NCBI GenBank assembly: GCA_000826855.1
Contig: JTLS01000011.1
Location: 1-52,937 of the forward strand
Length of the DNA stretch: 52,937 bases
Direction: 5' to 3'
Source: Basidioascus undulatus
Lineage: Eukaryota
The notes below the pieces were generated by a model. The model had not been told where the DNA came from and did not search any database. It was given only the letters and a program-made list of their open reading frames with translations. A program made the position numbers and the translations under genes. Below, in pieces: positions 13,555-43,343 of this stretch (positions within the stretch are counted from its first letter, which is position 1; each line of letters begins with the position of its first letter).

Positions 13555-15369
13555 TCAAATATCCAGCTCGCCCAGCGCCTCCTGCTCTTTGCGCTGCTTC
13601 TCCCTCGCCTTCTCCACCCTATCACTAATAGCATCCACGACTCTATCCAGCCCCAACCTCCACCTCGCACTAACCGGCACGACATCCACGTCGTCGCCCA
13701 AGACCTTCTGCGCATGCTCTTCGAGCTCCCTCAGCTTCTCGTGCGCCGTCCGCACCTCCACCTCGTCCGCCCCGTCCCCGCCCAGCAAGTCCGCTTTGTT
13801 CGCCACGACGACGCGTCCGCGCGCGGAGAGCCCAGGGAGGTACGCCTCGAGCTCCGCGACGAGGGTGTCGAGCTCGTGCACGGGCGAGGCGGATGCGAGG
13901 TCCAGCACGTAGATGAGGACGGGGCTGCGCTCGATTGAGCGCAGGAACGAGTGCCCCAGCCCCTTGTTGAGCGACGCGTCGGGCAGCAGACCCGGGTTGT
14001 CGAGCAGCGTGTACCGCAGACGCTCGGGGACGACATCGTTTTTCCCTGGACCGGGGACCCACTCTGCCCCCGCCGCCCGCCGCTCGTCCTCGAGGAGCAC
14101 TTCGTCCCGCGTGTCCAGCACCTCCCGGCCCTCCTCCGCGCCGATGAATCCGCCCCCGACGCGCGCCCGCACGACTCCGATTTGAGGGTTCAGGGTCGTG
14201 AACGCGTAGCCGGCGATCTCGGAACGCCGCCCTGTTAGCGCGCGCAGGAGCGTTGACTTGCCCGCATTGGGGAACCCGACGAGTCCCGCGTCGGCGAGGA
14301 GCTTGAGCTCGAGGTTCAGCGTGAGGTGAGCACCGCGCTGACCGCGCCGTGCGAAACGCGGGAAGCGCACGGTGGTCGTGGTGAATGCGGGGTTCTGCGT
14401 GAATGTCCGTGAGCGTGTCGCGTTAGACGGAAAGACGTAAGATGGTTAGACGTACGCCTGAGCCGCCCGAACCACCCTGGGCAACGAGCACGGGCGCATC
14501 CGACGGCTTATCAAAGTCCAAGTCGACCTCCTCCGGCGGCGCGCCCCTGGCCTTGATTCTCTCCTCCCTAAGGACCGCCTTCTCCGCAGCGAGGAACGCG
14601 GGGTTCTCCATGTTGCCCTCCTCCGCGCCGGGGTAGTGCACCCACAGGCGCGCGCGCCGCGCGTCCTCGTCCTCGTCGGGCGCCTCGTCCGCCTCCCGGT
14701 ACACCTCCTTCACGACCGTCCCCACCGGCACGGGGATGATCATGTCCGCCCCGCGCCGCCCGATCCGGTAGTCGCCCAGCCCGTGCCCGCCGTGCAGCGC
14801 TCGGATGCGCTTCGGGACGGTCGCGAGGGAGGAGAGCGAGGAGGTGGGCTGGAAGTAGATCGACCCGCCTTGCCCGCCGGAGCCGCCGCTGGAGGGAGGC
14901 AAGGTGAGGGGTGAGTGGGGATGAAAGAGCGAAGGATGCCACGAACCTGGGTGGACCGAGACCCGTAGCGGTCTTAGCGAAGGCGACAGCCCCGTTCCCG
15001 CCATTGCCTAAGGTAGCGCAAAAAGCGGTTAGCGTGCGAGGAGACGCGTTAAGAGAAGACGCTCACCAGCTTTGACATCCACCACCAACCAGTCTATGAA
15101 CCCGCCCGTCCCTTTCTATCCACCCAAAAAGCAAAACAACATCAGCATACATACACCCTCCAACCCCCAACCCAAATTCGCTGACCCACCTGCTGCCTCC
15201 GCTTGAGGTCCTTCTTCCTCCGCTCGCGCAGGAGGTCGATCTCCTCTTGCGTAGGTATATCACGCTGAGGCGCGGAGCATGACAGAGGTCGGCCGATGAG
15301 GTAATTGACTAAGCATGGAGCTGTCGTTGGCCGTCTTCGGTGCAGTCTGGCTGCGATTGAGAGGGACAT
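13555..15369 (-). CDS. MTG2: Mitochondrial Obg-family GTPase (mitoribosome assembly)
   Basis: Gly-rich Obg fold (FIDWLVVDVKAGNGGNGAVAF, GGSGGQGGS, IPVPVGTVV). G-domain LELKLLADAGLVGFPNAGKSTLL, AGYAFTTLNP, DNPGL, GLGHSFLRSIER, NKAD, VSA. Arg-rich presequence-like N-terminus. Confidence 0.92.
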
Positions 15370-20486: not shown

Positions 20487-21403
20487 TATGTCGGTAGAAG
20501 TAGAGGTGTTCTGGAAACCAGACATAGACGGGAATATACGTCTCCTCGAGGTGATCTTTCTGAGTATTATACCTGCACGTGTTGCATTCTTTCTGAAGTG
20601 CAGCGTGTGTGCTGTTTCGTGTATATACAGAGCCAGACAATCCATGTTCATCCATTCAGGAGTCATGGCTGTACCGCAGACCCAACTTGCTCTGATCCGC
20701 ATTTCGATGAAGACCTCACGTTGTTCAACTGCGAATCAGACGCACTTGTGCTGCTAGATGCAGTCAAAAGACGTCCATCGATCAATGTCCCACTGCTCAG
20801 GTCACTTCAATGGTTTGGCACACCCATTCCCCATTTTCGGGCATTTGGATAGAACCCAGTGGACGGCGCAGGCAATGCAAGGCGAGAGCGGCAGTACACG
20901 TTTTTAGAACGCGACTGCCATCGGTATGATCTAAGATGGGTTGTCGGAGGAATTTGCGGTTAGATCGACAGACTGCTCAACATAATTCTTTACCTGCTCT
21001 CCTCACCTGGGGAAGGCCTGGTAAAGAAAGAGAAGACGGGCAGTGACGTTCGATACGCGACTGGAAGCTGGAAAGTACATATAGCAGCTCGTGGCCCCGA
21101 GCGTGTTTGCTGTGGTCGTTCACAATTCCAACTGAGGCGCTCCTTCAGTGAAAACTAATATTTTACTCTCAGGATGTTAGTTCTGGGGAGAAGAGACCAA
21201 GTAAGGCAGAGAGGGTCAAGGTGGGCGAGCGACGGCCCGTCGATGCCCGTCCACCCGGCGATCCGCCTGCTTTCCAGCTCTCCTGCTCGCTTCCACCGCT
21301 TGGCCTTGAACCACAATCATCTCCGCCGTACATCAAGACTCTAACAGGCCTTCCGTCCCCCTGAATCACACTCCCCTTCCCATTGCAAACCACACGCTCA
21401 AGC

Positions 21404-23311
21404 ATGTCCGACACCGAGTCCAACGCAGGCGCCGGCGCCGAGACCGGGGTTCGTCCATAGCTCCACTCATTCCCTAGCATACACTCACCCCCTCCCTTCT
21501 ATAGGACTTGTTCTACGATCCAATCGACCAGCTCCAGTCCCACGGCATCAACGCGCAGGACATCACCAAGCTGCGCGCTGCGGGCATTACCACCATCCTC
21601 GGTGTCGTCCAGACCACTCGGCGCAACCTGTTGAAAATCAAGGTGAGTCTCTCGTACAGTTCTCCAGGGTTTCAGGGGATGGGGCAGCTGGTTGGAAGTC
21701 GACGCATGCAGCCGCGCTATTGTCGCTGTCCGCGGGGGACCTGAGACTGTGTCGTCCACTACTTCACGCACCTCTTCTAAACGATCTCTTGACCTCTGAC
21801 ACTGCCTTTTCTCGATCGCCAGGGCCTCAGCGAGGTCAAGGTCGACAAGATCAAGGATGCTGCGAACAAGCTTAGCAGCGCCGGCTTCATCACCGGCCAG
21901 GAGTGCATGGTCCGCCGCGAGAAGGTCCTCAATATCTCGACGGGATCGAGAGCCTTTGACGGTGCGCATTCCACCAGCCCCCGCCTCTCCGCTGCCTAGC
22001 ATTCGAGCTAAGCCGAGCCAAATACGACAGCCATGCTCGGCGGTGCGTTTTCATCCTCTCACTTGCCGAGCGCAGCTCGCTGACGACACTATCGGAACGC
22101 AGCCGGAATCCAGTCCCAGTCGATCACCGAGGTCTACGGCGAGTACCGCACCGGGAAGACGCAGCTCTGCCACACGATGTGCGTTGTCTGCCAGCTGCCC
22201 CCGGACATGGGAGGTGCGAGCGGCAAGGGTGCGTCTCATCTTAATCCTCCCATCTCTGCGTGTACACGGAATGCTGACAGGACGAGTTGGCGAACAGTCG
22301 CCTACATCGACACGGAAGTGCGTCGCGATCTCGACGCATCCCGTAGCTAGGCGGTCGTCGTACTGACTTCCATCTCGCTAGGGCACCTTCCGTCCCGACC
22401 GCATCCGCGCCATCGCAGAGCGCTTCAATGTCGACCCGGTGAGCCTCCTTCAGACCACGACGCGGGGTAGTCTCCCCAGCTGATCGACCTGAACGTCCAC
22501 AGGAAGCCGCACTCGAGAACATCGCTGTCGCTCGCGCTTTTAACTCCGAGCAGTGGGTCTTCTTCCCGTCTGAGTTTGCTGAACCGAGCACGGGGACTGA
22601 TATGGCGCGTAACTGCGCTCACAGCCAGATGGAGCTCATCCAGCTGCTCGCTGCGAAAATGGTCGATGAGGAGGGAGTCTACCGTGTCAGTCTTTCACCG
22701 CACAGCCAGTCCTCGAACGGCTTAGACTCATCCTCGTACCTCCTCAGCTCCTCATCATCGACTCGATCCTGGCGCTCTTTCGCACCGACTACTCCGGCCG
22801 CGGCGAGCTGTCTGAGCGCCAACAGAAGCTCAACCAGGTCCGTTTGTCTTATTTCTCTTGTTGAGGAGAATCAGGGCTGACGCCCTACCGCAGATGATGG
22901 CTCGTCTCCAGCGCATCTCGGAGGAGTTCAACATCGCGGTGTTCATCACGAATCAAGTCCAAGCCGACCCCGGCGCCGCTCTCGCCTTCGCCGCTGCCGA
23001 CAAAAAGCCGATAGGGGGACATGTTTTGGCTCACGCGAGCACGACTCGCATTTTCTTGCGCAAGGGGCGTGGAAACGAGCGCATCGCCAAGGGAGGACTT
23101 TCAGGTTCTCGTGTCATCGCAACCCCGGCCCGTGTACTGATTGTCTTTCTTCCCCTCCAGCTCGCCGACAGTCCAGACATGGCCGCGCGTCCAAGTTTCT
23201 TTTTTTCCTTTCGTCAAGGCAGCGTGTGCTACTGAATCCCGCCCCTTTTGATCTACACAGGAAGGCGAAGCGACGTACAGCCTCGGTCTGGGAGGCATTG
23301 AAGACGCATGA
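21404..23311 (+). CDS. DMC1: Meiotic recombinase Dmc1
   Basis: Spliced: [72 protein letters not shown] (Walker A)..[21 protein letters not shown] (Walker B)..[92 protein letters not shown] and DSPDM are DMC1-type rather than RAD51-type. Confidence 0.96.
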
Positions 23312-25184
23312 TTCCGAAGCATTGCAGCGCAGCCCCTCGAACTGCGAGCTCCCGCACATCCTCTAAGCGTTCTCGCTCTGCAGAAATGCGTCCATTTCGT
23401 TCGATGCAAGTGTCTTGCCTCCGTGTGCGAAGCTTCCAACATCTTGGAAAGCGGAAAGCGGCATTTTGCTCAGTCCTCCGCGTCGGGAGGCACAAACTAC
23501 AACTGTGATCGGGCATGCTCGTACCAGTTGCAGTATTGAGAGGTTCATGGGCAGACAGATGCTGCCTTGGAGAGGAGATGTGCGCGAAACACAAATTATA
23601 CAAGAGCAGACGAAACTACATCTAGAAACGGAAGCGGAAGAGTTCAAGGCAGAGTGTAGGGAAACGAAGTGAAGTCAAGCGGTCATAATCCCACGTCATC
23701 CACCGCCATATCTGCAACCGCCTCTTCGCGGACGGTCTGTTGGAGCTCGGATGATCGGACGACGCGGTCGTGAAGGCCATCGTTGACGCGGAAGGTCAAA
23801 AGACCTGTTTCAGTCGACACGATCAAAGCTCAGTCACGTCGAGACAATTTCCAACAAAGCAAGAAGGCCGAAAAGAAAAGGGGGGAGGGAACTCACTTAT
23901 GTAGACGTTGCTATCCGGAATGTCCGCGTCCTTGAGCAGGCTTAGCGACCACGCCGGCACGTCCTGCGGCAAGCTGGGCACGCCCGCCTGGCGCCAAAGG
24001 CCTCATCGAGCACCTCCCCGCTCTCGCGCTCAAGGAGTGCTCGAAGGATAGCAGTAGCGCTGGATTGCGCCGTGCGAACTGCCACACCCAGTGCCTCGCC
24101 GGACGAGACGCAGGATTCTCGCTCGTCATGAACCCAACGAAGCGCTCGAGCAGGCTGACGCTCGCTTCCGCCTCGTTCTGCGGCGCCGTGCGCTGGACGG
24201 CCCATCGTACGGCAGCGCATCGCCCGATGACTCGATGCGGATGGGGACCCGAAGAACAGGATGATTCTCAGACGCCGAGGCTGGAGTTGAGAGCCGGTTG
24301 CAAGAGACCGCGCCCGGTAGCGTAGCCGTGGTCAACAGCGGGCTCTTCAAGTTGGCGGTGTGTTAGGTAGCAATCGCGAGAGGAGCCTTCTAGTAATGTC
24401 CGCTTTGTGAGTCCAGAGATTCCTTGAAAGGCTTAAACATTCGTCAGGCTCGTCACGCTTACCCTCCATAGTGCTGATCTTCGTTGGTGGAAAGCGCGGG
24501 CTAAGTATCAGTAGCAAGACAAGACCTGGAGGTGAGGTAACAGGCCGACCGACTGTCTTGTAAGACCAAGTAAAAGCGAGCATTTTCGGGATCCCACGCA
24601 GTGAAGAAGGAAGGAAAGCAGCACGGAGAGTATAAAGCAAAAAGGAGCAGGATGGATCGAAGTAGACTGGTCCCGCAACAGCCAGCTAGTCAAAATCTGG
24701 AGACACCCACCAGCTTAGAATCAGACTCTGATGCCGCACATTCCCGCACCCAAAGTTCACCGCAGAAGGGAAGATATAAGGATATCAGTGGAAATGTTAC
24801 GTTTTGAATTGTTTCGAAAAGAAACAAGGATGTAGAGTCAGGTAAGGCGGATCAGAGCGTGCAAACCCAAGCAAGTGTTTCCTCGAGCTACAAGTGGGAA
24901 GTTTCTCATAGGGAAGAGGCAGCACATAATTTTATAGGCTCTGACAGTTATGACACCCTGAAGCTGAAGAGATCCCCCGTAAAGTTCACTCTGAGGCTGC
25001 TAGTTGTGACTTGCATGACTGAGCGGCCGACGCCCTTCTTTTTCCACGCGGTCGAGACATGACAGGTAGGCAAGCAAGGACGATGTTAGGAGAAGGAGTA
25101 TGCATTTCGGAAAAAGGGAACGACCGAACAAAGGGTCAGGGTATCGCGTATCGGAAGGAATGCACGGTCGAGCTCGCAGGTCGC

Positions 25185-25490
25185 TCATGCGCCTTGACGC
25201 CGCCGAGGCCGAGGCTGTGAGTCGCTTCGCTCTCCTGTGGAAAGGGACGTCAGTAGCACGGGGAATCCTGGTATGAGGAAGAGTGAGGCGGAAAACGCCG
25301 CCATGTCAGGGCTGTCGGCGAGCTGTCTCGGGGGAAGGATCGAGGAGACACGAGAAACTTTCCTTCGCAACGCGCTCGTTGCCACGACCCTTGCGGAGGA
25401 AGATGCGGGTCGCGCTGGCGTGGGGGGCTTTTTGTCGGCAGCGGCGAAGGCGAGAGTGGCGCCGGCGTCGTCTTGGACTTGGTCGGTGAT
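25185..25490 (-). pseudogene. Inverted, diverged 3' fragment of DMC1 retaining the last two introns
   Basis: The minus strand encodes [22 protein letters not shown]/(frameshifting loss of IGGHVLA)/[28 protein letters not shown]|..SLGLGG..GCATGA. It is colinear with DMC1 ~22945-23311 and has intron-like spacers at the same two positions. Confidence 0.9.
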
Positions 25491-25695
25491 GCTGCCGACC
25501 TTCACATCCCTCTCCCTCTCCTTGGGGGCTGACGCCTGAATACCGAATCTTAATCCAATCTTTTTCCAACTTGCACAGCTTATAATCAAGTTTCAGACCA
25601 CAAGGGATTGCTTGGTAGATTTTGCCTCGCCTTCCTATCTATAGAATATGAGAGGAACTCAGGCGATACACATTGGATGTTGGGGTGCAAGGACA

Positions 25696-28096
25696 TCAGT
25701 ATGACTTCGGAAGCCCGAGAACCCTCTGCGATACATAATTCCTGTATTGCATGCATGAGAAAGCGCTCGACATGGAGAAAGCGGCGAGGACTACTCACAA
25801 GATCATCTCCCTCGAAACGGGTGCGATGCGAGGCACGAACACTTCCCGCAGGTAACGCTAGAAGAGCATACTTGTTAGTATTCTTACGCTTGATCCCTGA
25901 GGTCGTTAACGGGCTTACCTCCACATGATATTCCTGGGCGTACCCCATGCCGCCGTGCGTCATGACGGCCCTCTCGCTGAGTGATGCAGTCGCAAATCAG
26001 CAATGAAGTACCGTCCGGGTGGGAAAATTGGCACGTACCAAGCTCGGAAAGCTGCCTCCGCCGCAAAGTACTTCGCGGCATTGCACCGTGCGCCGAGATC
26101 AGTGTCGCCCGCGCCGAGGCCGGCGGCCATGTTGTCATAAGCCCTTGCGGCTGCGTAGGTGAGCAGCTTGCCAGCTTCAAGGTCAATCCAGGATTGCTTG
26201 TGAGGCACAAGAGATTAGCCGCGATTTTTCCCGTAGGCAGTAGTACTGATCTCAATACTTACAGCCAGCGGATGTTGGATCGCTTGGTTTTGGCCAACTG
26301 TAGTAAGTGCACCCATGGCAGTCGTCAGCTTCTGCCAGGAATATCCTCAAGACCAAAAGCGCACGCACTGGCCCTGTCGAATACCACTCGCTCGGAGGCG
26401 TAACGTGCAGCGCGGCGGAGACCAGCGTAGCCGAGACCTGTGAACAAATGCAGTCAGTACGGCGTGAGTTGCCCAACATTACGGCTCCCTTTGCCCACCG
26501 AGAGCTTCGCCAGCGAGTAAGCACCGTTCCGCGTTCATGCCGTGAAGGATCCTAGGGAAAGATGTCAGTGTGCAGGAGATGTACTATCCGCGCTTCAGAC
26601 GCACTGCTTGAATCCCTTCCCTTCCTCCCCGATCCGATCCTCTACCGGTACTTCGAATCCATCGAAAAAGACCTGCAGCGCACTCAGCCTTTCAGCCGCG
26701 TAACTTCGGAGCGTGATTTGGCCGACACGACGAACCTGGTTCGCGTCCACGGCCCTCCCTCCCATCTTGGCAATGCGCCGCAGCTCGACGCCCTTTCGCG
26801 GCGTCACGCCGTCTGCTTCTTTCAAGTCCGCGAAGAACAGCGAGAGACCCTCGGAAGGCTTCTTGACTTCTGCGAGTGGGGTCGTGCGCGCTAGGAGGAC
26901 CATCTTTTGCGCTACTTGAGCTGACCTGTGGGTTTGAGGACATCCTCAGCAGCTGAAAAATGTAACATTGGCAGTGTAGCGAAGGGGCATACGAGATCCA
27001 GCTGGAGGGAAGGATGCATCGTGAGTCGACAGGGCCCCATAAGGTAGCTCGAGAAGGACCGAGTACCTACATTTTTGCGCCGTTTATGATGTACTTGTCC
27101 CCCTTGCGCTCAGCACGAGTTTGAAGCTTCAAGGTGTCCAACCCGGAGTTCGGCTGTACCCCACGCCACAGGACGTATTAGTTAAATCTCCACAAGCACG
27201 CCGGCTGCAGTCCAGCTGAGAGCGTACCTCCGTTACCCCGAAGCAAGCGCGCTGCTTCCCCTGAATGATCGGCGAGAGCCAGCGGGCCCGCTGATCCTCG
27301 TTCGCAAAGGTCCAGACTGCAAACGACGGGGTCAGATTTAGGAACGAACGTATGCATGGAGGATACGAACCAGGCTGCATGGCGTAGACGTTCGCGTGAA
27401 TGGACTGTGCTCCGGCGATGCCTGCACCAGACTCGGATATGGTTTGAAGCTGTCTTATGACCATGTAAGAAGGCTGCGCTATAGGTAGGAGAAGATGGAA
27501 ACCGTTGAAGGTGCTTACCATGACGGTCGCCTCGCTGATGCCGAGACCTGAGCCGCCGTGCTCTTCGGGCATGCAGACTGGGGTTTCCTTAATCAGTATG
27601 TCCTCGTAATGGATCTAAACCAAAAAAAAAAACGTACTGCCAATCCATCCGCCGTCCGCCAGGTCACGATGGAGATCATGCGGGTAGCTCCCTTCCCTGT
27701 GGTAGGAGGTCCCAGGTCAGATAGGCTCCTGAACATGCACATGCAAGAACTAACTGGTCTTTCTTGGCCCAGTATTCGTCCGGATATTTCTTACAGATCT
27801 CCTGAATAACTGACCGACAAATGATTGTTAGCCCGATGCAAAAACAAACAGAGGCCAAGGCCACGTTTGCACACCTTGTCGCACTTCGATTTGCGATTCC
27901 GTAAGTCCGTCCAAAGACATTCCACTGAACCTGTTCTCAACCGTATGATGAGCATCAAGGCCAAAGACGCGGATTCTGGAGGCAGTGTTACGCACTCTGA
28001 CGGGCGCACTTTCACCCGGCGCGACGCCGAAGACGCAAACGAGCGCGTCAAACCGCGCGGTGCAGCGTGGGCCAGGCGACTGAAACGTGCGAGCAT
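25696..28096 (-). CDS. Mitochondrial acyl-CoA dehydrogenase
   Basis: Presequence MLARFSRLAHAAPRGLTRSF. Motifs MPEEHGGSGLG, GAQSIHANVY, FGVTEPNSGLD, INGAKIWIS, IAKMGGRAV, IGEEGKGF, LHGMNAER, YHSLGG-antisense region encoding ERVVFDRPV, HGGMGYAQEYHVERYLRE, and MILNYVSQRVLGLPKSY*. Includes a 9-nt exon (26993-27001). Confidence 0.92.
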
Positions 28097-28483: not shown

Positions 28484-31400
28484 ATGGCCGGCACCAAACG
28501 AAAGGCCACCTCTCAGGCACAGAAGTCTTCAAAGGTACGTGGGCACATGGGAAAGTTACGCGGCGGTGTGTCGCTCACTCTCCGTCCGTGAACAGCGCGC
28601 AGCTCGGTCGCCTTCCTCCTCGGAGAACGAGGCGTTTCAGAGCGACGATGGCGAGGACTTGCTCGCCCGGGCCCAGTCCATGATGGACGATATTGATGGG
28701 GACAACGATGATGACTCGGAGGACGACGAGATCGAGGCCGCTTCCGATGAGGAAGGCAAGGGCTTCGAGGATCTCGAGGCGGACGGCGGCGAGGACGAGG
28801 ATGTGGAGATGGACGGAGGGGAGGGCAGCGACGCGCGGCCACGGCGAAAGCATCAGGGCCTGTACAAGGCACCGACGATGGAGGAGGTTCAGGCGCTGAA
28901 GGAGACGGGCGAGCTGTTCAAATCGAACGTGTTCAAGATGCAGGTGCGTCCCTTCCTTCGCAGCCAATGACTGCACTCCCCCTCTGATTATTTCTTCCAC
29001 GCCTCAAGATCGACGCTCTCCTCGAGCAAACTGCACCGCCGCCTCCCCCTCCCGCCCTCGCGTCCGCCCTTCACTCTCTCCGCGCACACCTCCTCGCCCT
29101 TCCGACCGTCAAGCCCCTCCCGCCGGCCACAGCGCGCAAGAAGGCCGGCTTCGCATTTCCGTACCCCGACCCGCCCAAGGACGTCCAGTGGAAGCTGGCG
29201 TTTGACAATCCGAAGGACGTTCAGGTTGTGGGCAGCTGGGCTTTGCGGACGGGTGTGAAGAAGAAGGGCGAGGCCAAGGGCTGGGAGGTCGGCGTCGGCG
29301 TTGTCATGCCGGAGGTGCGTTCTCCTGGCATTTTGAAGAGCATGCGGAGGCTGGCTAAACCGATTGCGCGGAATTATAGGAGCTGTTCCAGGAGAAGGAC
29401 TACCAGAACGACCGCTTCTTCCAGAAGCAGGCGTACTACCTCTCCGTCATCGCTGCATCCATCAACAAGTCCAAGGCGCTCGGGCTGTCCGTTTCCGCCC
29501 ACCTGCGCAATGACGACGCTCGACTCCCTTCGCTCCTCCTCACCTCTCGCAAAGGTACCTCTTACGCAGCGCCTTTTCTATGCATTCCACGCTAACAGTC
29601 CCATTCATTCCAGACTCCGCAAACCCCCTCCCGTCCTCCCTGCACATCCACCTTCTTCCCCTCCTCTCTACGCATTCTCCGCTCCGCCCTACTCAAAAGC
29701 TCTCTCCCGCGCGCCTCTCCCCCCTCACCTCCCACGCGCTCATCCTGCCCTCGCTCATCCTCCCGCACCTCGTGCACCTCCACGCGCTCGCCGAGTCCTC
29801 GCCCGCCTTCCGCGAGGCCGTCCGCCTCGTCAAGATCTGGGCGACGCAGCGCGGCCTGCCATGGATCGCGGAGGAGGGCGCGGAGTGGGTCATATGCGCG
29901 CTGGTGGGCGGGGAGGAGCCGGTCGGGAACGGCAAGCCGCGTGGACGGCTGGGGAGGGGCCTGAGTTACTACCAGGTGTTCCGTGGAGCGATCGACTTCC
30001 TCGGTATGTCCGCATTTAGGTATTCGGTTGCTGGAGCCTCTCAGCTGACGCTCGGTGGCATCTTCCAGCCAAGCACGACTTCACCGCTGAACCGGTTTTC
30101 ATGAAGCTCATCCCCTGCAGCCGCCCCGTAAGTGGTTCTCTCTCGAAGTTGCCGAGAGCTTCGCTTACGCTGCGTTGCTGGCGCCTCAGCTTCCTCGTGA
30201 AGACTTCACTTCCACGTCCAGCGGCGTGCTGGTCGACCCGACGGGAACGCTGAACGTTGTGGCGCACGTCATTCCGGAGGATCTCGAGCTTGTGCGTACC
30301 TGGTCGATTGCGACTATCTCGCCCGTACTGATATGTTCCCTCTATGTGCAGATTCGGCATGAGGCGGCGGTTACGCTCAAGCTGCTTGACGACACTCAAG
30401 ACCGCTTTGACGACACGCTGCTCCGCAACCTGCGCGAACCTACCGTCAAGTTCGATTTGACGGCCCGGTACGCTCAATAAAGGTCTTGTGTGATCGTGAT
30501 CGCGCAATGCTCACAGTACCTCGTTCGAGCAGCGTCGACATACCCTCATTCTTGCTTTCGCAGTCTAGCGAAGGCTCGGACGCTGCGTCTTCCCACTCCG
30601 ACCTCCGCATCCGACTGTCCTCTGTTCTCCGCCGCGCCCTCGGCAACCGCGCACGTGCCATTTCCCTCACCCTCCCCCGCGACTCCACCACTGCCGTGCT
30701 CGGTATCGTCCTCGACCCCGCGCACACCGCACGCCTCGTCGATCACGGCCCGCCCGCCGAGGACAAGGAGGGTGGCGAGGTATTCCGCAAGTTCTGGGGC
30801 GCCAAGTCCGAGCTGCGTCGTTTCAAGGACGGCCGGATCACTGAGAGCGTCGTTTGGGACGCAGGCTTGACTGCGGGCTGGGAGAGCCGCGGCCTCGTGC
30901 CCGTCCACGTCGTTCGCTGGATCCTGCGCCAGCACTTCGGCATCGCGGACGTCGAGTTCGTCGCTGAGGACTTCGCGGGCGTTCTCGCGCGACCAAGCGT
31001 CCAGGGCGTCCCGCGCCAGGCGGATTTCTCGGCGGCGCTGCGAGCGTATGATGAGCTCCAGAAAGCCCTGCGCGACATGGAGGGCCTCCCGCTTTCCGTG
31101 CTCAACGTCTCTCCCGCCTCCCCCCTCCTCCGCTACACCTCCGCGTTCCCGCCTTCCCCTGTCGACCCGTCCGCCTTCGGCACCATCCCCGACGCCGCCA
31201 AGTACATTCCCGTCGCGGACATCGTTCTGCAGTTCGAGTCTTCCGGGCGGTGGCCCGACGACCTGCTCGCGATCCAGCGCATGAAGCTCGCCTTCCTCGA
31301 GGCGACCGCGCGACAAGTCATGGACGCGCTGCCCGGCACGCGTGCACAGGTCGTGCTCGACTGGCCGGTCTCGAACGAGATGGCCGACCGGTGCGCGCTG

Positions 31401-32748
31401 GAGCTCGTGACCGGGGACGGGTACGCATTCCGCGCGCGCATCCACCACGACCGCGAGCGCGTTCTCCTGGAGCGCATCATCGCCGACAAGAAGAACCAGC
31501 TCGAGTCGCACCGGAAACAAGCGCAGCTCGCGCACGATATCCACCTCACGTCCTTCAACCGCCGCCCGAGGCACCACGCCGCGATCGCTACCGTGCACCA
31601 CCTCTACCCGTCCTTCTCGCACACCGTCCGCCTCGTCCAGCGCTGGTTCGCGGCGCACCTGCTCAGCCCGCACGTCGCGCCCGAGCTTGTCGAGCTCCTC
31701 GTAGCGTACGTCTACCTCGACCCCGGCGCGTTCCAACCGCCGGTCAGCGGCGCGACGGGCTTCGCGCGTACAGTCCTGCTTCTCGCGCGCTGGAAGTGGC
31801 GCACCGAGCCCCTGCTTGTCCCCCTGTTCTCCGCCGCAGCACAGGAGGAGGCGGGCCGCGTTGCGTTCCCGCTGGACAAGCGCGAGAGGGCCGAGAAGGC
31901 GTTCGAGAAGCTTCGCTCGGCAGACCCCGCCATGAACCAAGCCACCATGGTCATCGCGACAGAGGCGGACACGGCCGGGCGCTGGTGGGCAGGCGGGAAG
32001 CCGAGCAGGCTCGTCGCCGCTCGCATCACCCAGCTCGCCAGGGCAACGTATGCAGCGCTGGAGTCGGGCGCGGTTGATGGCTCGCTGGACGTCATGGTGC
32101 GCTTTTACGTCTCGTTTACTGTGTAGGCTGCAGCTGAACATGACGGTCGGCACGCTGCAGTCCCTGTACAAGACGCCGCTTACCGACTACGACTTCCTCA
32201 TCAACCTCAACCCCGCCGTTCTCACCCGCCACGTCGACGCACTCTTCGCGGACGAGTCCGTCCTCGCCAGCAAGACCGTGTTCAAGAACCTTCCCGCCTC
32301 AGCTGAGAATTCGGTATACGGCGATGAGGTCCGGGTGGACTTCGACCCTGCCAGCGAGCTGCTCCGCGACCTGGAGGTGCGCAGCGTGCCTTTCGCTACG
32401 CTGCTTGTCCAAGTGCTTCGACTGACAGTGCATCCTACAGCGTATCCACGGTGATTCAGCCGTGTTCTTCCACGACCGTCTCGGCGGGGCTGTCATCGCA
32501 GGGCTTTGGAACCCGGCCCTTCGCGAGGGCAGGAGGTGGAAGGTCAACCTCGGCTTTTCAAGCATGCCCTCAAACAAGGGCGACCAGGAATTGGTAAGTT
32601 GCAGCGAAGGCCTGCAAACGTTCGAGTGGCTGATGGTCTGCTTCTCCGCCAGGGCGCCACGGTCGAACTCAACACGGGGGCTGTGTTGAACGAGATTGAG
32701 CGGATGGGGGAGGGGCTGGTCGCTGGGGTGGAGCGGCTGAAGCAATAG
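28484..32748 (+). CDS. UTP22: U3 snoRNP / 90S pre-ribosome protein Utp22 (Nrap/NOL6)
   Basis: Acidic N-terminus. Motifs ELFKSNVFKMQIDALL, VVGSWAL, LFQEKDYQNDRFFQKQAYYL, FRKFWGAKSELRRFKDGRITESVVW, QFESSGRWPDDL, TVRLVQRWFAAHLL, YDFLINL, IAGLWNP and EIERMGEGLV. Stop TAG 32746-32748. Confidence 0.96.
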
Positions 32749-38555: not shown

Positions 38556-39551
38556 ACGCTTTTGCCTTTGCTCTGATGCTTTCGTGCGTTGCGGTCTCGA
38601 ACTGCCTTATAGGCGGCTGACTACCTCCGTGTTCTCGGGAGACCGTTTTTGGTGCGGTGAAACCGATCGATGAGGAAAATGCATGTCGTGGTGCAAGGTA
38701 CCACCACTCTTATATCGCTTTTGAAGTAGCGCGGCTGGGATATCCAAATTGCGCATGTCCTCGGTCATCGGAAAGGGACATGCGATGCGTCTGTGCGTGG
38801 CTTGGACCAGAGCGGCTTCACCGATAGCCAGTAATGCAATGGCCCTCAGAGTACTCAACAATCAAGTTCCCATTGCACCTCTTTCAACCCCGACCCTGTC
38901 TTCAACTCGCTCCCGACCGTCGCGCTCGTTCTCTTCACTGTCATTGTGCGCCCGACCCACTCCCCTTCCCGCTCCCAATCCCGCTTGTCTCCGCCCCGAT
39001 TCCACTCGCAGAGGGGTGGCCAGAGACTGCCCTTGGCGCAACGAGTTCCTCTACGGCATCGAGTGCCCGGCTGGAGAGGTAGACGAGGATGCGGCCGATG
39101 CGGACGTAGAACAGTATCACGGTTGCGAACGCTGTTCCTAGTCGGGTCATGGTGGTGGTAGGCGTAGAGATTTTTTGCAAAGCAGGACGGATTCGAATCA
39201 GCGAGCAAGAACGGCCCGGAAGTTGTGCTGCTTGATTCACTTGCGCTCGGCGGACGTCATGGCGGAAGAGAATTGAGGACTAACGGAAGGAGGCTCGGGA
39301 AAAAGTGCTCCGGCCGGTCTAAGGACGGCGTAGCAAGGTACAAGAAGAGCTCAGAGTGGCAGTCCGCAGCCTCACGTCAATCAGGCTCCGTCAGACAACG
39401 CGCTGTTCCCTCTCGCATGTGGTATAATCTCGATAGGTAACTCTACAACACGGCACCAACAGAAGCACAAAGAAAGTGAAGCACAAAGAAAGAAACAAGC
39501 ACACAAATTGTACCAACCCCAACCGAACGTTCTCCCGTCCTCTCCATCCCA

Positions 39552-42500
39552 TCAGCGGGACGTCTTCCGGATCGTCCGGCGCTCGCCCGAGCCGGTGATC
39601 TTGACGAGGCCGTCGGTCTCGAGCGAGCGCACGACCTCGCCGAACTCGGTAGGGTCGACGTTGACGGACGACTGGTCGTTGAGCGCCTTCGACACCTGGT
39701 CCCAGCGCATCGTCCGCCCCGAGTCGAGGATCGCGAGGATCTCCTTCTTGAGATCGCTCCGCTGGCGGCGGCCATGCAGGCCCTGGCCGGTGGCTGTTCC
39801 CGCCGGACACAAAGCGTCAGCAAAGTTTCGGTCTCGACGTATGAATGGCAGGGCGGAAGAGCAGCAAACGCACTGAGCAAGTCCATGTCGATGAGGCCGG
39901 ACGACGGGTCCGTGGCGCTCTCCTTGAGAGCCTCGCGGATGAGGCGCACCGCCTCCTGGACGTCCTGGAGCTCGACGCGGTCCGAGAAGCGCATGCGCGC
40001 GTGCGCCTCGGAGAGACGGATCATGCTCTCGAGCTGGCGCGTCGTCGCCGTGATGCGGCGCTCGGACGAGCGCGGGTCCTCACCGAGCTGGCGCAGCGCG
40101 ACGTACTGCTTCACGAGCTCGTCCGCCGCGTTCGCGGACAGGACCGGGTTGATCTTGTTGCGCGCGTAGGTGATGTAGGCCGTGAGGGTCTCGAGAGACT
40201 GCGAACCCCCATCAGCATCGCGTTCGGCTCGAGAAAGAATGAAGGGGGAGGAAGGGAACGAACCAGGATGTCCGTTCCCGCAGTTTCCATCGCGTCCTCG
40301 AGGTACATGCCGATGAGGTGCTTCGCGAGCCGGCGGTCGTTGGACTCGTTGATCTGGTCAAGGACGAGGTAGAGAAGGTCGAAGCGGGAGATGAGCGTGG
40401 GTGGGAGGTCGATGTTGCGCGTGATCGGCCACTGGAGGTTGTACTTGGACCCGACCGGGTTCGCCGCGGCGAGGATCGACGTGCGCGCGTTCAGCGTAGT
40501 GATGATCCCCGCCTTGGCGATCGACACCGTTTGCTGCTCCTGCACGAGAGGCGACGTGGTATGAGCAAGATGACCGGCGGGGAAGTGAGAGTGGGGAACG
40601 AACCATCACTTCGTGCAGTACCGACCGCGTTGCGTCGGACATCTTGTCGAACTCGTCGATGCAGCATACACCGCCGTCGGAAAGGACGAGTGCACCGCTG
40701 CGGAATCAACCCTCCTTAGTCAGTATCTTGTCTGCGCCAGGCAGCCTACTCAAACGGTCGACGAACCTCTCAAGAACGAGCTGCTTCGAGTCCGGGTCGC
40801 GCGTCACGTAGGCCGTGAGACCGACGGCGGACGAACCCTTGCCGGACGTGTACACGCCGCGGGGGGCGATCTTGTGGACGTACTACCTCGGCCCACCCTC
40901 TCAGTCAGCCAAAGCTCTTGTGCCGGGAGTTAATGGATGCGGGAACTGTGAGGCACCTGAAGGATCTGGGACTTGGAAGTACCGGGGTCGCCGACGAGAA
41001 GGACGTTGATGTCCCCACGGTACCTCGGCCCACCTCCTCCGCCACCACGCGCGATGCTCTTGTTCGTCCCGCCAAACAGCTGCAACAAGATCCCCTTCTT
41101 GACATCGTCCATCTCCCAGATACTCGGCGCGAGACTCCGCGCCAGGAGCTCATACGCGTCCTCGCGCGCCGCGACCTCCTTCAGCTTCTCCTCGAGCTCA
41201 GCTGCGATCGTGCTGCGCCCTGCGGCGGAGTCCTCGCGGGCGGCAGCCTCGGCCTCCTCCTCCTCCTCGCCCCCGACACCGACGGCGACAGGGACCTTGC
41301 CTTCCGCGCCCTCGCGCGTGGTCGGGTCGAACCCCATCCGGTGAGCGTCCGACCGCTTCACGTGCACCACGTCCAGGTACGTCTTGTAGAGCGACTTGAC
41401 GGCCCGCTGGCGCGGGTTCACGCGCACGGGGAGCGAGCGGAAGATCCCCATTACGGTCACCCGGTCGCCTGGCTTGGAGAGGTCGACGAGCTCGTCGTAC
41501 ACGCACAGAGAGACCGTGTGCGGCGTCTGCCCGTCTGGGACCGCATCTGGATACTCCCCAACCCAAACGTAAGATAAGCGAACGCTGGAGGGAGAAGAGG
41601 GAGCGATCAACGCACCGGGCGTCTCCTGCAGGCGCACGACCTGCTTGTCGGCGAACTCGGAGCGGTTGTGGATGAGGCTCATCGTGCCCTGGAGGTTGCA
41701 CACCGCGCGCGGGCAGCGGTCGGGCTCGGCGATCCGCCCGCGGTCGATCTCGACCTGGTGCGTGTGCCCGCAAACGAGGCAGCGGAAGAAGGCTGGGCGG
41801 ATCGAAGCGACAGTCAGAGTCTGCAGTTGCGGGTGATGTGGGGGAGCATGAGGATGGCGGGGGCGCACCGTTCTTCATGTCCGGGATGACGGACGTCGCG
41901 CGGATGACGAGACCCTTGACGGCCACGAGCTTGTCGGTGTCTTCAAAACGCGCGCTAGTCAGTCGCCTGCCACGCGGACCTCGTGAGCAGCTTCCAGGAA
42001 GATCGCACGCACCCTGCGGGTTGAGATCGCGCATGTTGATGGCGTTCAATCCGAACGGGCGGACCTTGTACACGCGTCCGCCCATCTCGCCGAGCTCGTC
42101 GTCCCACGCCTCGGCGCCGAGGCCGTCGACGTCCGCCTCGGCGTCCTCCTCGCTGAGCTCGATGAGCGTGTCCTTGAGCGCCTGGTCCATGATCGGGATG
42201 ATCTCCTGTGGGTACTTCTGCACTTGCGAGTACAGCTTCCTGGACGGCGGGTACGCGTCCAGGTCGCGCAGGTCCAGGTTCAGGTTGGTCTGCGCGAGAA
42301 CGCGTAGGGCGTCAGAAGATGGGAATGAGGGTGTAGGGTGGATGGAGGGACGGAGGCGCACCTGCGACGTGAGCCGCATTTTGCGGAGGAGAGCCTCGTA
42401 CTTGCTCTGCTCGGCCGTGCTCGGGTCCGCGAGCGCAGGGACGCTGATCCCGCGCTTGCGGTCGTAGTCGCGCCTGTACTTGGGCTTGAATCCGCGCAAG

Positions 42501-43343
42501 AACTCGCGGAACCTAGGTCACACCATGCCTCGTGTCAGGCTCCTTCTGGCGAAGCGGACGAAAGGGAAGAGGGAAAGGGCAGAGGGAAAGGGCACTGGTA
42601 CTCACGCGCTAAGGGACTCGTTGATGCCGACGTTCGTGCCCCAAATGACCTTGACCATACCGTCCTCGCCGATCGCGTCCGACGGCGGCTGCTGCGCCGA
42701 GAGCGTCGGGTCGCTCGCGAGCCGCGTCACATCAGACATGGGCGCGCCGCCGCCATCGCGCCGCCGCGTGCGCTGAGCCGAAGGCGACGTTGGCGGCTGC
42801 GACGAGTGGATGTCGCCGCGCCTGTTGCGCGGACGCGGGGTCCCGTCGGAACCACTACAAGCGAGGTTGCGGGAGGCGTCAGCTTGGCGTGGGGGCTGAG
42901 AGGGGGAATGGGAAGACGCGTACGGAGAGAAGAAGAGGGGCTCGTCGGACTGCTGCCCGGCCGCAGCGGACGCCTCACTAAAGAGGCGCCTTGCGGAAGA
43001 GCCAGGCGCGCCTCGGCGCGGGGAGGAAGTCGGGTATTGCAAAGGGGAAGAGACCTCTGGTGTGCCGTTCCCCAACACCTGATGAGCCCGACGCGCCTGC
43101 AAATACGATATAAGTCGCAGACGTACCGCTGTTGCGCAACTGGGTAGCTCTCGGCGTCCGTTCGCCTCTGGAGACAGGCGTGTCGGTCGGGAAGCGGAGC
43201 GGGGAGGACGAGCGGACGTTGTTGGCGGGTATCGCGGCGTTGAGTGGCCCGCCCGATGAAGGGAAGTTGAGAGGCGAGGATGAGCGGACGGCGGGATTGG
43301 CAACCGTGCCGTCTGACATCTCGGCGTCTTGATTGTGCGACAT
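39552..43343 (-). CDS. MCM4: DNA replication licensing factor Mcm4
   Basis: Ser/Pro-rich N-tail (SSPL repeats), VIWGTNV, NMRDLNP, Zn finger [106 protein letters not shown] and [17 protein letters not shown]. Confidence 0.97.

Follow-up and report, generated by a model that had tools for sequence, protein, structure and literature searches.

The DMC1 gene of the fungus Basidioascus undulatus, read here within a window of 52,937 nucleotides (the whole stretch of DNA analysed), carries two neighbouring introns near its 3′ end, introns 11 and 12, whose 5′ ends are GG and GC, respectively; both exist, and both are removed exactly where they were first placed. The whole reading that we regard as probable is that intron 11 is a genuine U2-type intron with a GG 5′ end and intron 12 an ordinary GC-AG intron, both being removed precisely to give a Dmc1 protein of 336 amino acids. 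A GG-AG intron beside a GC-AG intron is a validated further case of a known rare class, and intron 11 looks like a rare tolerated variant, with no sign of a dedicated meiotic switch. The features of the gene are as follows.

21404 to 23311, forward strand: DMC1 of Basidioascus undulatus, from start to stop codon, the joined exons encoding 336 amino acids
22894 to 23091, forward strand: DMC1 exon 11, 66 amino acids, with the C-terminal letters ...GNERIAK
23092 to 23160, forward strand: DMC1 intron 11, 69 nt, GG..AG, phase 0, donor context aag/GGAGGA
23135 to 23141, forward strand: branch motif TACTGAT of intron 11, with the branch adenosine at 23140 and a distance of 20 nt to the acceptor
23142 to 23160, forward strand: pyrimidine-rich tract (23142 to 23157) and CAG acceptor of intron 11
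23161 to 23184, forward strand: DMC1 exon 12, 24 nt, LADSPDMA, joined to both neighbouring exons in a contig of run X3 (see below)
23185 to 23260, forward strand: DMC1 intron 12, 76 nt, GC..AG, phase 0, donor context gcc/GCGCGT
23232 to 23236, forward strand: branch-like CTGAA of intron 12
23261 to 23311, forward strand: DMC1 exon 13, 16 protein letters followed by the TGA stop

In the gene model, DMC1 is divided into 13 exons and 12 introns of 56–180 nt, and introns 1 to 10 are all GT-AG (10/10), with donors of the type GTNNG[TC]; the first-pass annotation had rightly described the upstream introns as uniformly GT-AG, but had counted nine of them instead of ten. A CTGAC- or CTGAT-like branch motif, read by eye, lies upstream of the 3′ end in most DMC1 introns. 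The assignment to DMC1 comes from exon-by-exon comparison with the NCBIfam models, in which TIGR02238 (DMC1) scored above the RAD51 model in four of the five exons tested, with 115.6 bits against 81.6 bits for TIGR02239 in exon 11 and 45.3/25.3, 50.3/35.6, and 52.1/38.7 bits (DMC1/RAD51) in three others, the Walker-A exon giving a tie (67.1/68.1 bits). Scored singly, these five exons, which comprise 229 of the 336 residues, together give about 330 bits, the cut-off of TIGR02238 for a whole protein being 447.7 bits. Among the matches listed in a protein search with exon 11, the best ones are named Dmc1, and the C-terminus of the spliced protein aligns with 18 Dmc1 homologues with zero gaps after ...RIAK. 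The conserved junction ...ERIAK/LADSPDM... is restored, as had been claimed, by an intron at 23092–23160 that starts with GGAGGA and ends with CAG, a placement on which the gene model and the skip in the X3 contig agree; the same two sources support the next intron, 23185–23260, which starts with GCGCGT and ends with CAG, the skip being read as GC..AG.

The nature of these introns was examined in the contigs of three sequencing runs over 22800–23400: X1 (2014, study P1), X2 (2025, study P2), and X3, which shares its sample with X2, is listed as 'DNA?' with no RNA record, and consists of contigs only, with the growth stage unrecorded. The contigs of X1 and X2 cover 22980–23400 with zero differing letters, the word depth being 18.4 in X1 and 56.4 in X2, and list no variant at 23092–23093; the sole difference listed in 22800–23400, G>A at 22978, comes from contigs of the diverged DMC1 fragment described below. 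GG at 23092–23093, the pair of bases for which a check had been proposed, is therefore found in two studies eleven years apart and is no assembly error, although the assembly may have been made from X1 or X2, which leaves at most one of them independent of it. In X3, contig record 11 (1233 nt) skips 56, 69, and 76 nt, corresponding to introns 10, 11, and 12, the first as a GT..AG skip, the second as a joint 23089 to 23159 (69 nt, with two ambiguous letters), and the third as a joint 23184 to 23261 (76 nt, GC..AG). The X3 depth falls to zero in the bins inside these three introns, the share of sampled 31-letter words found in X3 over 21300–23400 is 0.39 against 0.41 expected from exons alone, and the contig is 108 nt longer than the upstream exons in spliced form, which fits a 5′ UTR of 108 nt; on these grounds, X3 is transcript-derived. 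None of the three joined forms (0/3) occurs in the DNA runs X1 and X2, and no contig with a retained intron is present among the X3 contigs, which can drop rare forms.

The two ambiguous letters at the joint of intron 11 permit only the placements AG..CC, GG..CA, or GG..AG, so a GT, GC, or AT donor is impossible, and GG..AG is preferred as the sole placement with an AG end behind the pyrimidine tract. An antisense intron at 23092–23160 was also considered and ruled out, since the minus strand reads CT..CC. The same two letters of microhomology, together with the listing of X3 as 'DNA?' and not as RNA and the possible descent of the assembly from X1 or X2, are what could be cited for an artefact, be it an assembly error at 23093, template switching by reverse transcriptase, or an intron-less DNA copy. 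Nevertheless, GG stands in both DNA runs, which differ in year and study; the junction gives back the reading frame and exactly the spacing seen in orthologues; one GT..AG and one GC..AG intron are likewise skipped in this contig; the joined form is missing from the DNA run of the same sample while the introns are missing from X3; and even a retrocopy must stem from an mRNA spliced at these sites. The artefact reading is largely refuted by these observations and, in our estimate, is highly improbable in any of its forms.

Apart from its first two letters, intron 11 has the sequence features of a U2-type intron. The 3′ signals noted in the first-pass annotation (TACTGAT, a pyrimidine tract, and CAG) are all present, so that branch motif, tract, and YAG end correspond to the U2 type; at the 5′ end, the admissible placements start with AG or GG and not with GT or GC, a departure by which the minor GG-AG class is defined. 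The U12-type donor and branch consensus, compared by eye, was found neither in GGAGGACT nor in the 3′ region of the intron. In intron 12, the donor GCGCGT departs from the local consensus GTGCGT only in its C at +2, and the exon base before it is C and not G. Retention of intron 11 would add 23 residues in frame without a stop, as had been noted from the translation; a stop-free frame of 23 codons has a chance of about 0.33, and thus the open frame of intron 11 by itself means little. The fold of 23072–23180 (−27 kcal/mol, z-score 0.15, with 105 of 200 shuffles equally good) contains no meaningful structure. The GGAGG at the start of the intron (23092–23096) is the reverse complement of CCTCC (23154–23158), just before the final AG, and in the fold of lowest energy the donor region is paired to the pyrimidine tract, a fold no better than those of shuffled sequences; this complementarity of the intron ends is regarded as chance. 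A search of the 52,937-nt window with Rfam gave zero matches, so no snRNA was found there. On the preferred reading of a genuine GG-AG intron, the 69-nt intron 11 would be recognised as a unit, like other short introns of this genome, through its normal branch motif, pyrimidine tract, and CAG together with G at +1 and G at +5 of the donor; the mismatch at +2 would be tolerated, probably at some cost in efficiency, and the product would be the 336-residue Dmc1 with its standard C-terminus.

The strength of the donors was assessed with a position matrix built from 17 local GT donors, ten from DMC1 and seven from UTP22, the latter obtained by a homology-guided junction search. The UTP22/Nrap gene lies at 28776–32736 on the forward strand and has about ten short introns. 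In this search, which is a rough census, all nine junctions between HSPs have an in-phase GT..AG solution (40–400 nt), seven of the nine with a GTNNG[TC]-type donor, and at least one further intron (30190–30351) has no solution. The junctions near 29555 and 32063–32133 lack the usual GTNNG[TC] donor and could hide further unusual introns. On this matrix, the GG site of intron 11 scores −3.0 bits, or 0.4 bits when position +2 is left out, the 17 training donors giving 2.6–9.2 bits without +2. The GG donor is thus weak by local standards, and something beyond the donor may be needed for its use. Both locally invariant donor positions, G at +1 and G at +5, are kept in the GG site, the latter being present in 17 of the 17 local GT donors. 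The canonical 5′ end of U1 can pair or wobble-pair with A at +3 and G at +4, and the local consensus at these positions, G and C, pairs less well; given this pairing, the GG site may be less poor in base-pairing terms than its matrix score suggests. A U1 5′ end that differs so as to pair with G at +2 would account for the use of the GG donor, and a variant U1 has been put forward for animals rich in GA-AG introns (PMC7072748).

The GT at 23113, presented in the first-pass annotation as the only in-phase fallback donor, is indeed in phase, but it is not the only one, since the GTs at 23134 and 23143 and the GC at 23128 are in phase as well. With any of these three as donor, the intron would be no longer than 33 nt (33 nt from the GC at 23128); use of the GT at 23113, which scores −2.0 bits, would add 21 nt in comparison with the removal of the full 69 nt. 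With the donor matrix, no in-phase donor better than the GG site was found in intron 11. Another GT belongs to a block that is also present in the inverted partial copy of the gene.

23105 to 23115, forward strand: GT-containing block GTTCTCGTGTC, 13 nt inside intron 11, present in the fragment with one extra T

This block could be a possible helper site or plain residual homology. As a helper, U1 snRNP would bind CAG/GT at 23102–23106, 13 nt inside the intron, and the spliceosome would then cleave at the upstream GG. The poor quality of the GG site as a donor (0.4 bits without +2) speaks for such an arrangement, as does the fact that the GT at 23105 and the next nine bases are common to the partial copy. 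The rival is motivated by a precedent in human FGFR genes, where splicing of GA-AG introns is described as requiring a canonical GT 6 nt away; a dependence of this kind on canonical sites was proposed as general by Burset and colleagues (PMC7072748, PMC4176328). The FGFR introns resemble intron 11 in having a purine at donor +2 and a canonical GT a few bases off; nevertheless, the FGFR site lies 6 nt upstream, whereas the nearest GT of intron 11 is a weak one, 13 nt downstream. With 2.3 bits, the GT at 23105 is itself a weak donor; it is out of phase (+1) and has no G at +5, a base present in all 17 local donors. The shared block is accounted for by the common origin of the two copies, whose overall identity is 79%. 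Taken together, we consider a helper site unlikely, though it deserves more credit than any other alternative treated here.

The partial copy itself lies downstream of DMC1 in the opposite orientation.

25185 to 25491, reverse strand: broken partial copy of DMC1, from part of exon 11 through exon 13 to the stop codon

Exon 11 of the copy has a gap of 19 nt, and its intron 11, only 40 nt long, is without a branch motif; its identity with DMC1 over the aligned columns is 79%, and the arms of the inverted repeat reach complementarities of 91% (66 nt), 90% (30 nt), and 83% (41 nt). Read as reverse complement, its junctions are AAG/GAAAGT and GCG/GCGTTT, with donors GA and GC, in agreement with the first description. 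The further proposal that the copy mirrors the non-GT donors is reasonable for intron 12, where C stands at +2 in both copies, but carries less weight for intron 11, which is poorly alignable and has G at +2 in one copy and A in the other. The C shared at +2 makes it the simpler reading that the GC donor of intron 12 would be older than the duplication. For intron 11, the donors of both copies share G at +1, A at +3, and G at +5, and with the different +2 base and the poor alignment, the partial copy appears to say little on whether the ancestral intron already lacked T at +2. The alignment also places TTCTCGTGTC inside intron 11 of both copies, as had been pointed out; it is a shared 10-mer directly preceded by GT in both. 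Between copies that are 79% identical, this sharing is best taken as residual homology, which is unremarkable and gives no evidence of function. The partial copy is situated just downstream of an acyl-CoA dehydrogenase-like gene on the minus strand, and a Pfam search with seven frames around DMC1 and the copy gave only an acyl-CoA dehydrogenase C-terminal domain (25960–26214, minus strand). A 173-nt contig of X3 (depth 5.06) covers the exon-11 part of the copy and 112 nt upstream of that part, and on this evidence the stretch (within 25185–25600, minus strand) appears to be transcribed, perhaps as the 3′ UTR of the acyl-CoA dehydrogenase-like neighbour.

In the comparison with other organisms, a read-through from exon 11 to exon 12 matched 726 proteins at E ≤ 0.001 among 1284 candidates, and no close Dmc1 orthologue was found among the best 120 of the 726 matches, the top identity being 82% over exon 11 alone. 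The best database identities of UTP22, 47% with Botryobasidium and 44–46% with Wallemia, place its nearest sequenced lineages among deep Agaricomycotina and Wallemiomycotina and suggest that the source belongs to a deep-branching lineage of basidiomycetes lacking close relatives in the protein database. Long frames at 39443–42517 and 13555–14445, both on the minus strand, resemble an MCM helicase and an Obg-type GTPase, respectively, by motifs read by eye. A metagenome scan yielded 503 stretches and 340 relatives, from which 80 DMC1/RAD51-like loci were kept, with no close relative among them; 78 of the 80 read through ...K/xxDSP without an intron at the position of intron 11, and the other two, the RAD51-like loci L051 and L052, have there a GT..AG intron of 32 nt. 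In most metagenomic DMC1 loci (L003, L008–L012, L014–L018, L020–L038, and others), ...AK-xx-DSP is followed by an intron starting with G. As this intron comes right after DSP, unlike introns 11 and 12, the positions of the latter are apparently not shared with those metagenomic, probably ascomycete, genes.

The absence of a close orthologue among the protein matches listed, the broken partial copy nearby, and the occurrence of non-GT donors in two of the 12 introns could also be expected if DMC1 were decaying, on its way to loss as in the lineages that lack Dmc1, with the non-GT donors disabling it. This explanation is the hardest to sustain and the least probable of those considered, since the frame of 336 amino acids is intact, the exon-by-exon scores with the DMC1 model are good, and the X3 contig shows the gene to be expressed and exactly spliced.

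A more specific role was envisaged in the first-pass annotation, namely that, owing to the weak GG and GC donors, a stage-specific activator of splicing is required for full-length Dmc1, with the protein produced only in meiosis. The very weak donor in the matrix is consistent with such control, and a transcript retaining the intron in frame would escape nonsense-mediated decay. Meiosis-specific control of splicing is described for MER2, HOP2, SAE3, and others in Saccharomyces cerevisiae (PMC7969001, in the sections consulted), and in the human CPSF3 gene, a GG-AG junction was seen in testis transcripts only (Parada et al. 2014, PMC4176328, in the part consulted). The CPSF3 case resembles intron 11 in its GG-AG ends and U2-like context, testis being the organ of meiosis, and differs in gene and kingdom and in that the CPSF3 junction is an alternative one, while removal of intron 11 is the sole route to the conserved protein. 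On the other side, the single transcript contig, from an unrecorded growth stage, is fully spliced at introns 10–12, with no retained form, and the splicing of yeast DMC1 is reported to be independent of Npl3 (PMC7969001). Introns of the Mer1/Nam8 type in S. cerevisiae are comparable in having weak 5′ splice sites in meiotic genes.

The donors of Mer1-type yeast introns are not known to depart from GT, and the Mer1 enhancer motif is AYACCCTY. This motif, with up to one mismatch, has zero matches in introns 11 (23092–23160) and 12 (23185–23260), a difference from the yeast introns that also counts against the proposal, although the test is a weak one. Over the whole window, the same search gave 141 matches against 99.8 expected, the largest shuffle reaching 134, and this mild excess is probably due to composition or codon usage. 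We know of no Mer1-type regulator in the lineage of B. undulatus. A stage-specific gate on Dmc1 splicing finds no support in this analysis, and we consider it rather improbable. The same low credence applies to the idea that the GG donor is kept and not just tolerated, its low strength tying functional Dmc1 to a splicing factor or condition at meiotic entry.

For the preferred reading, in which intron 11 is a tolerated GG-AG intron of the U2 type, there is a precedent in another basidiomycete. The manually corrected annotation of Ganoderma lingzhi (PMC11590231) includes 20 GG-AG introns (0.0217%), 35 GA-AG introns, and 1706 GC-AG introns (1.85%), and its authors report that sequencing confirmed 10 non-canonical types picked at random. 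The GG-AG introns of G. lingzhi have the same terminal dinucleotides and likewise lie in protein-coding genes of a basidiomycete; that of B. undulatus differs in being located in a conserved meiotic recombinase, beside a GC-AG intron. The latter, intron 12, belongs to the major non-canonical class, GC-AG, and is unusual only in the C before the donor. In other groups, no GG-AG intron is reported for FlyBase release 6.04 in the consulted part of PMC4528330, and U12-type GG-AG introns are described in SLC12A4 of macaque and cow and in SLC25A30 of rat (PMC2831892, in part); these share the end dinucleotides with intron 11, which is without the U12-type donor and branch consensus according to the comparison by eye. 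GG-AG is not mentioned in the main text of PMC7072748, PMC13149111, or PMC6310983, and, judged by title and abstract opening, none of the papers listed in a search on DMC1 and non-canonical splicing deals with a non-GT DMC1 intron.

In practical terms, gene predictors limited to GT and GC donors cannot build intron 11, and the likely outcome is that the C-terminus of DMC1 is mis-modelled or the gene is called broken; such mis-annotation can distort the inventories of meiotic genes from which cryptic sex is inferred in poorly known fungi. For the study of splicing, the intron offers a transcript-backed case in which a GG 5′ end with poor donor context is still accurately spliced in a short fungal intron, and it constitutes a simple test case for how position +2 is read. 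If the GG donor were kept, the form retained outside meiosis, with 23 additional amino acids, would be an isoform without activity or with a modulating role, and, if that were true, the strand-exchange enzyme of a deep-branching basidiomycete would be subject to a splicing gate that evolved independently of the Mer1 system. Should splicing prove to be stage-dependent, meiotic splicing control would extend beyond budding and fission yeast.
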